From Candidatus Jordarchaeia archaeon (GTDB lineage Archaea > Asgardarchaeota > Jordiarchaeia > Jordiarchaeales > Jordiarchaeaceae): DNA of 14,376 bases. Every line of letters starts with the position of its first letter. Position 1 is the first letter of the stretch. Below the pieces are notes generated by a model. That model was not told the DNA's origin. It saw only the letters and a program-made list of their open reading frames with translations, and ran no database searches. Location: NCBI GenBank assembly GCA_029856435.1, contig JAHQXB010000044.1, positions 1-14,376 on the forward strand, written 5' to 3'. Shown here piece after piece: positions 3,633 to 4,964 of this stretch. Made by a program: the position numbers and the translations under genes.

Positions 3633-4026
3633 ATCTATGAAGATGCTTCACAAACAAAACCAATAATATTAATTAAACAATCTGAGAGTTGCTCCTGTCG
3701 ATTGAAAACATTATGTTTATGTACAAGTTAATACATGTCAAAAGGTTTCTTTGAATAATCACCAACAAGAAGGGTTAAATTAGACAAAAATCTAAAAGAC
3801 AAACAATTATACTTCCACACAATACATAGAATAAGTTTTACAATATTGTCTACTTTGACAGTTATTCTCCAGTAGGATCCTCTTACTCATTTGAATTGAA
3901 TTAGTAATAATAAATAGCATTAAAAGAAATGCCGGTACCTCGTTAATACACTTTTAGAGCCAGACTGTTTTAACATAAAAGAAGCTGGTTAAATAAGTGG
4001 GAAGAAGTTTGGTGCAGGGCAGGAGA

Positions 4027-4052
4027 GTCTCGGGAGATGAAGCCAACCTCCA
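4027..4052 (-). other. tRNA intron at position 59/60 (26 nt), strict BHB
   Basis: Intron TGGAGGTTGGCTTCATCTCCCGAGAC. Central helix UUCG(54-57)/CGAG, bulges A58-A59-U and A-C-U60, inner helix GGAGGU/AUCUCC, outer helix is the T-stem AGGAG/CUCCU. Confidence 0.92.
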
Positions 4053-4083
4053 TTCGAACTCCTGAACCCCTACGGGACTGGAT

Positions 4084-4114
4084 TTCTTAACTATTTGCTG
4101 TTTTTCTCTTTGAT
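4084..4114 (-). other. tRNA intron at canonical position 37/38 (31 nt), relaxed BHB/BHL
   Basis: Intron ATCAAAGAGAAAAACAGCAAATAGTTAAGAA. Central helix CUCA(32-35)/UAAG has a C34-A mismatch and there is no good inner helix. Removal restores the anticodon loop CUCAAGA. Confidence 0.9.
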
Positions 4115-4183
4115 CTTGAGTCCAGCGCCGTTGACCTGCTTGGCTAGCCCTGCAACCATTTCTTCTAGACTTTCTTTATGCTG

Positions 4184-4194
4184 TTTATTTTAAA
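4184..4194 (-). promoter_or_regulatory. Putative TATA box of the tRNA-Leu gene
   Basis: TTTAAAATAAA on the minus strand, 30-40 nt upstream of the mature tRNA 5' end. Confidence 0.5.
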
Positions 4195-4509
4195 TATTTG
4201 TCGGGTGGCTTTGGGGCGAAATTGGTTTTATCTTTTTCTTCTCAGCGCTTTCGCCGTTAGAGGTCGTATCTGCGGCGAAAAACAATACTCTTTCACTACA
4301 TTACGGGTGATACGCGTCGGGGAACATGAATTTTGTCCCAAAGCTGGGGGGAGTCTAAGGATTATTAATATATATCTAGTGTTACCATTTAAGGATTTAA
4401 AAGTCGGATATACTACTAAAATTGCTCAAATATTGCAATAATGAATACAATCCAAATTTAAGCGTAAAAATATCTTCAATTTTTTGGTTAAATTTAGGAG
4501 GTGTAAATT

Positions 4510-4964
4510 ATGAGAAGTGGTGAGGTTCATAATAAAGGTGAGATTTCTCTTATGGACATTATTGGTGAAATTAGGAAGAATCCAAATATTAACAAGGCTG
4601 GCGCTATTGCCTGTTTTATCGGGATTGTTCGTGGCGAGTCACAGGAGGGAGTTCCTGTGGAAAAGCTAGAGTTGGAGGCATACGAAGAAAAGGCAAACGA
4701 AACACTAACTGGTATATGTGAGGATATTAAGCATAGGGAAGGTATCATTGATGTACATATTCACCATAACGTTGGAGAATTTGGTGTGGGTGAAGAAGTG
4801 GTATATGTGGTAGTTGCTGGAAAGCATAGGAAGGAATTGTTCTCGGCGCTTATCGATGCAGTGGAGAGATACAAGAAGGAAGCTCAAATATGGAAAGCTG
4901 CCTAAGATAAGCAGCCCATAAAAAGGAGTATACTTTAAGTGGAGCCCGCTGGGTGAAGGAATAG
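4510..4964 (+). CDS. moaE: Molybdopterin synthase catalytic subunit MoaE, intron-split: join(4510..4895,4922..4964), 142 aa after splicing
   Basis: GAIACFIGIVRG, LELEAYEEKA, HNVGEFGVGE and VAGKHRKELF..AVERYKKEAQIWK motifs; SD GGAGGTG at 4497..4503. The contiguous ORF ends IWKAA* at 4905, but KEYTLSGARWVKE* follows in another frame to TAG 4962..4964 and is rejoined by removing 26 nt. Confidence 0.93.
4896..4921 (+). other. Putative BHB intron in moaE pre-mRNA (26 nt)
   Basis: AUGG (4890..4893) pairs with CCAU (4916..4919); 3-nt bulges AAA (4894..4896) and AAA (4920..4922); inner helix GCUGC/GCAGC with a 9-nt loop. Cutting after the second nucleotide of each bulge removes 26 nt and restores the frame and the WKKE motif. 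Confidence 0.85.

Follow-up and report, generated by a model that had tools for sequence, protein, structure and literature searches.

An intron in the cbf5 gene of Crenarchaeota (Aeropyrum, Sulfolobales and Desulfurococcales) was reportedly described by Watanabe in 2002 and by Yoshinari in 2006. The crenarchaeal cbf5 pre-mRNA intron has a relaxed bulge-helix-bulge (BHB) structure, is cut by an (alpha-beta)2 splicing endonuclease (EndA) (Yokobori 2009, PMC2738675), and has been "confused with translational frame-shifting" (PMC2738675). A 2023 review puts the number of genes spliced this way in archaea at two or more (PMC10485636), and the HVO_1309 mRNA of Haloferax volcanii likewise contains a BHB that is cut by the archaeal splicing endonuclease and religated (Schwarz 2020, PMC7714728; PMC10485636). 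Here we describe a 26-nt segment in the molybdopterin-related gene moaE of a Candidatus Jordarchaeia archaeon (contig JAHQXB010000044.1). The sequence analysed, called the window below, is the whole 14,376-bp contig (C50) of a 3.54 Mb draft metagenome-assembled genome (MAG) of 181 contigs. Positions 4896..4921 of the window are, with high probability, a genuine relaxed HBh' BHB-type intron in the moaE pre-mRNA of this Asgard archaeon (Freyarchaeia/Jordarchaeia).

The predicted moaE intron resembles that of crenarchaeal cbf5, which a first-pass annotation of the window had rightly named as the documented archaeal mRNA intron. Both are short and protein-free, lie within coding sequence, have a relaxed BHB at their borders, are restricted to a clade (cbf5 with gain and loss), and occur with a hetero-oligomeric (alpha-beta)2 EndA. 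They differ in that cbf5 is an RNA-modification gene of Thermoproteota, whereas moaE serves metabolism in an Asgard archaeon, its intron lies 13 codons before the stop, and its splicing is predicted. The HVO_1309 transcript is, like that of moaE, neither tRNA nor rRNA, and unlike the moaE host it is served by an alpha2-type enzyme. The HVO_1309 site is said to lie in the 5' region, outside conserved codons.

Closer in lineage are the introns of tRNAs. In a sister genome, introns occur in 92-95% of tRNA genes, many of them at non-canonical positions, and the passages searched in the paper describing it speak of tRNA introns only and mention none in protein-coding genes (Valentin-Alvarado 2024, PMC11291895). 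The multi-intron tRNAs of Freyarchaeia and Atabeyarchaeia share with the moaE insert the lineage, the size class and the architecture of a 4-bp helix (H) with 3-nt bulges, but their introns sit in tRNAs. In the literature searched for BHB motifs or introns of Asgard archaea, Freyarchaeia and Jordarchaeia, no protein-coding gene is described as carrying an intron. Gene 60 of phage T4 is also comparable, having a short, stop-containing hairpin gap between matched codons across which the protein is read; unlike the process proposed for moaE, its mechanism is ribosomal and not one of RNA processing.

The moaE gene and its interrupting segment

The moaE open reading frame (ORF) lies on the plus strand (4510..4905), encodes 131 aa and ends ...AQIWKAA before a TAA at 4903-4905. 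It matches the Pfam family MoaE (PF02391), the large subunit of molybdopterin synthase, with 97.6 bits (cut-off 23.4; E = 6.7e-28; profile 17-114 of 114) and is the single moaE copy in the genome. Exon 1 (4510..4895, plus strand) holds codons 1-128 plus AA, the first two bases of Lys129; exon 2 (4922..4964, plus strand) completes Lys129 with its third base and continues with KEYTLSGARWVKE and TAG (4962-4964). When 4896..4921 (26 nt) is deleted, the sequence reads ...ATA TGG AAA AAG GAG ... GAA TAG and encodes a 142-aa MoaE ending IWKKEYTLSGARWVKE; the C-terminal K-K-E...W appears only once this segment has been removed. The first-pass annotation had described moaE as truncated at IWKAA, with the missing tail 26 nt downstream in another frame, and its coordinates proved exact; the 142-aa product that it expected from the removal of 4896..4921 was confirmed by translation. 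Upstream of the tail there is no start codon in its frame, save a GTG three codons before the stop, so that separate translation of the tail is implausible.

When the spliced protein is aligned by MAFFT with 106 full-length homologues, conservation is 100% at K129, K130 and E131 and 99% at W139, and the unspliced product retains only the first of these four residues. PIWKKE...W is present also in the solved MoaE structures of Aquifex and Staphylococcus, and the alignment of E. coli 1FM0 with spliced MoaE extends to residue 137. Because a literature search on what the C-terminal residues of MoaE do found nothing usable, their importance was judged by conservation and by alignment to the solved structures. 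The equivalents of E. coli Lys126 and Glu128 are presumably catalytic. The genome further encodes moaC and ten intact aldehyde:ferredoxin oxidoreductase (AOR) genes, and hence the cell needs molybdopterin.

The insert itself (4896..4921, plus strand, 26 nt) contains TAA at 4903, 4908 and 4919, one in each frame. All of its structural elements lie on the plus strand. The central helix is formed by exonic AUGG (4890..4893, within the Ile-Trp codons) and intronic CCAU (4916..4919). On its 5' side follows the bulge AAA (4894..4896, predicted cut after 4895), which is unpaired in both the single-sequence and the RNAalifold folds, and on its 3' side the bulge or loop AAA (4920..4922, predicted cut after 4921). 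Between the two strands of the central helix the intron forms a hairpin (4897..4915) made of GCUGC (4897-4901), a 9-nt loop CUAAGAUAA (4902-4910) and GCAGC (4911-4915). A distal outer helix, GCUC (4882..4885) with GAGU (4926-4929), consists of coding bases and is probably incidental. Since both bulges are AAA, the cut can be placed only to within +/-1 nt, with the product unchanged, an imprecision that the first-pass annotation had anticipated from the A-run.

The minimum free energy (MFE) fold of 4875-4940 recovers the inner hairpin, the AAA bulge on the 5' side and the distal pairing of GCUC with GAGU at -16.6 kcal/mol (z = -3.2), a value equalled by 0/200 shuffles. With its 4-bp AUGG/CCAU helix, clean 5' AAA bulge and 5-bp inner helix, the segment has the BHB geometry of the HBh' type and falls short of the strict hBHBh' form. 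Hairpin-type BHB candidates, defined by a 4-bp helix, two 3-nt gaps and a stem of at least 5 bp, number 7,197 on both strands of the 3.54 Mb genome, or about 1 per kb per strand. For a candidate whose cuts exactly restore both the frame and WKKE a chance origin is unlikely, and for the moaE insert the comparative data given below settle that question.

Conservation of the insert among relatives

Twelve distinct insert sequences were collected; the sources were all six species genomes that make up the genus, two contigs from metagenomes and another six variants from the databases. In each of the six species genomes the insert stands at the same site, and the 12 sequences extend to a protein identity as low as 76%; a closed genome, CP147778 (SRVP19_Freyarchaeia-1), is among the carriers. 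The two metagenome contigs came from a pattern scan and one of them holds a new variant. Insert lengths are 24, 25, 26, 27 and 28 nt and thus occupy all three classes modulo 3. When each is cut after the second bulge nucleotide, all 12 variants give W-K-K-E-Y-(3-4 variable residues)-A/G-x-W-V-x-E/D, a mature sequence that matches the invariant residues of the 106 intron-less homologues. At 67% identity or less the insert is absent and WKKE (or FKKE) is read directly, as in 24 moaE homologues from other families of the order and phylum, which have TGG/TTC-AAA-AAR-GAG and no insert.

Protein lengths follow the same division. In a protein search, the 14 clusters at 76% identity or higher are all of 131 aa except one of 133 aa, and among the matches listed the 106 at 67% identity or less span 137-192 aa; across 268 homologues, no entry at 76% identity or higher exceeds 133 aa. 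DNA was compared for six of the 14 close clusters. The first-pass annotation had predicted that standard annotation would miss the intron, which these 14 entries bear out, and had proposed a comparison with the moaE genes of related MAGs: the insert is conserved in the 12 variants with changes that preserve pairing, and distant homologues lack it.

The 39-nt tail has zero indels in the 12 variants, and its stop stands at the same position in 11 and two codons further on in one. The intron loop beside it is 7-11 nt long, with five different lengths in the same 12 variants. Variable sites at codon positions 1, 2 and 3 number 5, 5 and 11 for the tail, and 5, 2 and 18 for the 21 codons that close exon 1. 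Judged by these substitution counts, the tail is under coding constraint.

Pairs of the BHB structure were counted in a 12-sequence alignment. The central helix is invariant, its non-coding 3' strand notwithstanding, and the inner helix is 100% paired, with UA (9), CG, GU and UG at pair 3 and GC (11) and GU at pair 1. Overall 98.8% of cells are paired, vs 35-47% after the partners have been shifted by 1-3 columns, and RNAalifold independently recovers the same hairpin. The structure is thus kept with compensatory change to a modest degree, in that double changes occur in one pair only and the loop varies freely. The 3' bulge is AGA in variants L116 and L118, where the BHB rule takes that G out with the intron.

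A stop in the frame of exon 1 lies within the intron loop in 12/12 variants, and the loop starts YUAR in 11/12. These loop stops could reflect selection against read-through of unspliced mRNA, or could simply come with an AU-rich loop.

Splicing machinery and rival explanations

The genome encodes two EndA-domain proteins and an RtcB ligase, and alignment points to a set made up of an EndA with the catalytic triad and a Lys44 equivalent, a His-less beta paralogue and the ligase. The 192-aa EndA (C104:1178-1756) gives a gap-free alignment with the catalytic alpha subunit of the Aeropyrum pernix enzyme (3P1Z_B, E = 3e-45); its Tyr/His/Lys triad is identical, and it has a Lys aligned with Lys44 of the Crenarchaea-specific loop (CSL/L1), the residue that confers broad EndA specificity (PMC3241643). 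In the 197-aa paralogue, encoded on contig C64, a Thr stands opposite a His of M. jannaschii chain 1A79 in the aligned block. We read this residue of 1A79 as the catalytic His, and its replacement by Thr would make the 197-aa paralogue a structural beta subunit. [quoted passage not shown]

We consider it very probable that EndA and RtcB excise the moaE insert from the mRNA. After transcription, exonic AUGG would pair with intronic CCAU and the intron would fold its own 5-bp hairpin; the heterotetrameric (alpha-beta)2 endonuclease would then cut behind the second nucleotide of each A-rich bulge, and RtcB would join the exons. The predicted splice junction in the transcript is ...ATATGGAAAAAGGAGTA..., and that in moaE of CP147778 (about 1,715,600-1,716,050, minus strand), without its 25-nt insert, is ...GATATGGAAAAAGGAGTAC.... 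The mature mRNA would read ...I-W-K-K-E-Y-T-L-S-G-A-R-W-V-K-E and give the full-length 142-aa MoaE, and unspliced mRNA would give only the 131-aa protein without the invariant residues. The proposal of the first-pass annotation that this lineage splices an mRNA with its tRNA machinery is supported by every sequence-only check, and is in our estimate highly likely to be correct.

Several observations weigh against this reading. No high-identity 142-aa spliced form was found in 5.8 billion proteins, public sequencing-run assemblies included, and the Pfam MoaE model is complete within exon 1. The MFE fold and RNAalifold both favour a 5-bp central helix in which U4889 is paired to A4920, and in this register the 3' cut site is a 3x5 internal loop with no clean 3-nt bulge. 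The BHB register leaves one pair only (U4889-A4923) after the 3' bulge, and for this reason the motif is assigned to the relaxed HBh' type. Of the BHB geometry first proposed for the segment, the AUGG/CCAU helix, the 5' AAA bulge and the GCUGC/GCAGC helix have stood, but the second clean bulge has not, since the 3' site is loosely bulged and the 3x5 loop is preferred; the accompanying caveat of a weak outer helix was well placed. The distal GCUC/GAGU helix is broken in variant L114, and because it is made of coding bases that are present also in the intron-less homologue L013, it is regarded as incidental. Lastly, 6/500 shuffles attained the covariation score, which derives from two pairs of related sequences; owing to that relatedness covariation is supportive and not decisive.

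If splicing does not occur, the 131-aa protein ending IWKAA, which every annotation pipeline calls, could be the real product, or the gene could be decaying, with the downstream KEYTLSGARWVKE a relic of an old insertion that removed the C-terminus. The databases hold no spliced form, and as the Pfam model is fully matched in exon 1, some activity of the 131-aa form may exist. A relic would nonetheless have had to remain open, free of indels and biased by codon position across 12 variants with identities as low as 76%, as the loop next to it underwent five changes of length, and to keep K130, E131 and W139, which are 99-100% conserved family-wide. A dead insertion would have no need of the compensatory changes with which the hairpin and the non-coding CCAU have been conserved, and the gene is the sole moaE beside ten AOR genes; we regard this account as unlikely. 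That the insert is an assembly artefact, a strain-specific insertion or a mobile element was conceivable a priori in a draft MAG of 181 contigs, but different studies have recovered it in no fewer than 12 independent assemblies, including the closed CP147778, which was validated with long reads by its authors (PMC11291895). A second copy of the intron sequence was not found in the genome, so that it is not a repeated mobile element, and the probability of an explanation of this kind is negligible.

Ribosomal mechanisms were weighed against splicing as well. Under translational bypassing of the kind known from phage T4 gene 60, peptidyl-tRNA-Lys would take off at AAA 4894-4896, pass over the hairpin and land at AAA 4920-4922, giving the same W-K-K-E protein, so that the bypass product is identical to the spliced one; matching AAA codons do flank the gap in the moaE studied here, and the take-off codon is followed by a hairpin and a nearby stop. 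This stop, however, is not adjacent to the take-off codon, and in L116 and L118 the landing codon is AGA, not AAA, which fits bypassing poorly. Intronic CCAU pairs with exonic AUGG over exactly 4 bp between 3-nt A-rich stretches, a geometry needed by EndA and not by the ribosome, and in the inserts of tyrS, cbf5 and pcm described below the junction codon comes from both exons, which makes bypassing impossible there. Bypassing is not known in archaea, and we hold it to be very improbable at this locus. A programmed ribosomal frameshift was considered and rejected: the stop at 4903-4905 closes the zero frame, and downstream of it a TAA at 4908-4910 closes the tail frame, and in relatives the 24- and 27-nt inserts are in frame yet contain stops. 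With insert lengths in all three classes modulo 3 and a stop in frame in every variant, the inserts cannot be accounted for by any one ribosomal frameshift.

Similar inserts elsewhere in the genome

Besides moaE, inserts of 28-32 nt with a 4-bp helix, A-rich 3-nt bulges and a simple hairpin were seen in cbf5, gatE, tyrS, pcm, a hypD-like gene and two others. The cbf5 insert (contig C73:22783-22813, minus strand, locus L122; 31 nt) splits the catalytic motif GHAGTL-D-PKVTGVLP, and the codon of the catalytic Asp is built from both exons. BHB inserts of the 30-32-nt class lie in gatE (C73:11339-11368, minus strand), tyrS (C81:49794-49823, plus strand) and pcm (C109:12093-12124, minus strand). The junction codon is assembled from both exons in tyrS and pcm, as it is in cbf5.

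Pfam matches continue from one exon to the next in pcm (PCMT, profile 3-59 in exon 1 and 61-208 in exon 2) and gatE (GatB_N, 2-41 and 47-276). In cbf5, exon 1 matches DKCLD (10-58) and exon 2 TruB_N (17-149), and in tyrS exon 1 (48 aa) has no match and exon 2 matches tRNA-synt_1b from 18. Inserts of 28-30 nt in the hypD-like gene (C136:1384-1411, minus strand; HICG-T-HEQ...GPGCPVC), a gene with a YHFDGHR motif (C24:15011-15038, minus strand) and a PurM/SelD-like gene (C35:14826-14855, minus strand) were judged by motif only. The genome's only RtcB gene (C93:302-1636, minus strand, locus L126) has one in-frame TGA, which sits in a 30-nt BHB-type insert (CCCG-ACA-...-CGGG-AAG), and removal of the insert joins ...SVTLPD to AHQGYGFPIGG. 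As this only RtcB gene carries a stop-containing insert, the ligase for BHB splicing seems to need splicing itself.

In a genome-wide scan for BHB inserts that merge coding stretches, matches at the true cuts (~1,000; strict hairpins 33) were no more numerous than those at cuts shifted by 1-3 nt. The scan yields no genome-wide count because same-strand gene junctions dominate the background, and it was used only to pull out single cases, which were then checked by motif and Pfam. Further genes interrupted by BHB-type inserts were confirmed as single cases (cbf5, gatE, tyrS, pcm and rtcB), and the scan showed no statistical excess.

Within the window, a tRNA-Leu(CAA) gene with two introns (4010-4153, minus strand) lies 450 nt upstream of moaE. 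One intron (4027-4052, 26 nt) has the strict hBHBh' form, GGAG UUCG AAU ... CGAG ACU CUCC, at a non-canonical position, in contrast to the relaxed moaE insert, and the other (23 nt) is in the anticodon loop (ARAGORN). Neither Rfam nor ARAGORN gave a match in the raw window, and the tRNA-Leu was visible to ARAGORN only after the 26-nt intron had been removed. The region 3633-4509 (877 nt), between a helix-turn-helix-like gene and moaE, has no long ORF; nothing besides the tRNA-Leu was identified in it, and Rfam gave no match there.

Protein-free BHB splicing inside coding sequence is confirmed in the literature for one archaeal gene only, cbf5 of Crenarchaeota. The moaE intron is of this known but very rare kind, in a new gene and a new phylum. 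Conserved and verified at the sequence level, it lies in a metabolic gene, with similar inserts present in essential genes, and would bring mRNA splicing by the tRNA endonuclease and ligase into Asgard archaea, the archaea closest to eukaryotes. Systematic mis-annotation by standard pipelines, as in the 14 close moaE entries of 131-133 aa, would distort metabolic reconstructions.

On balance, the evidence tips slightly towards mRNA splicing by the tRNA machinery being a general and obligatory layer of gene expression in Freyarchaeia/Jordarchaeia and not a curiosity of a single gene. If so, moaE would be one of many genes, among them tyrS, gatE, cbf5, pcm and the hypD-like gene, that make no full-length protein without EndA and RtcB, and the ligase gene rtcB would itself carry a stop-containing intron. 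Splicing capacity would then gate the synthesis of molybdenum cofactor (Moco) as well as core functions of translation in a lineage that is related to the eukaryotic ancestor, and, in a stronger version, the stop-containing moaE intron may be used as a regulated switch.
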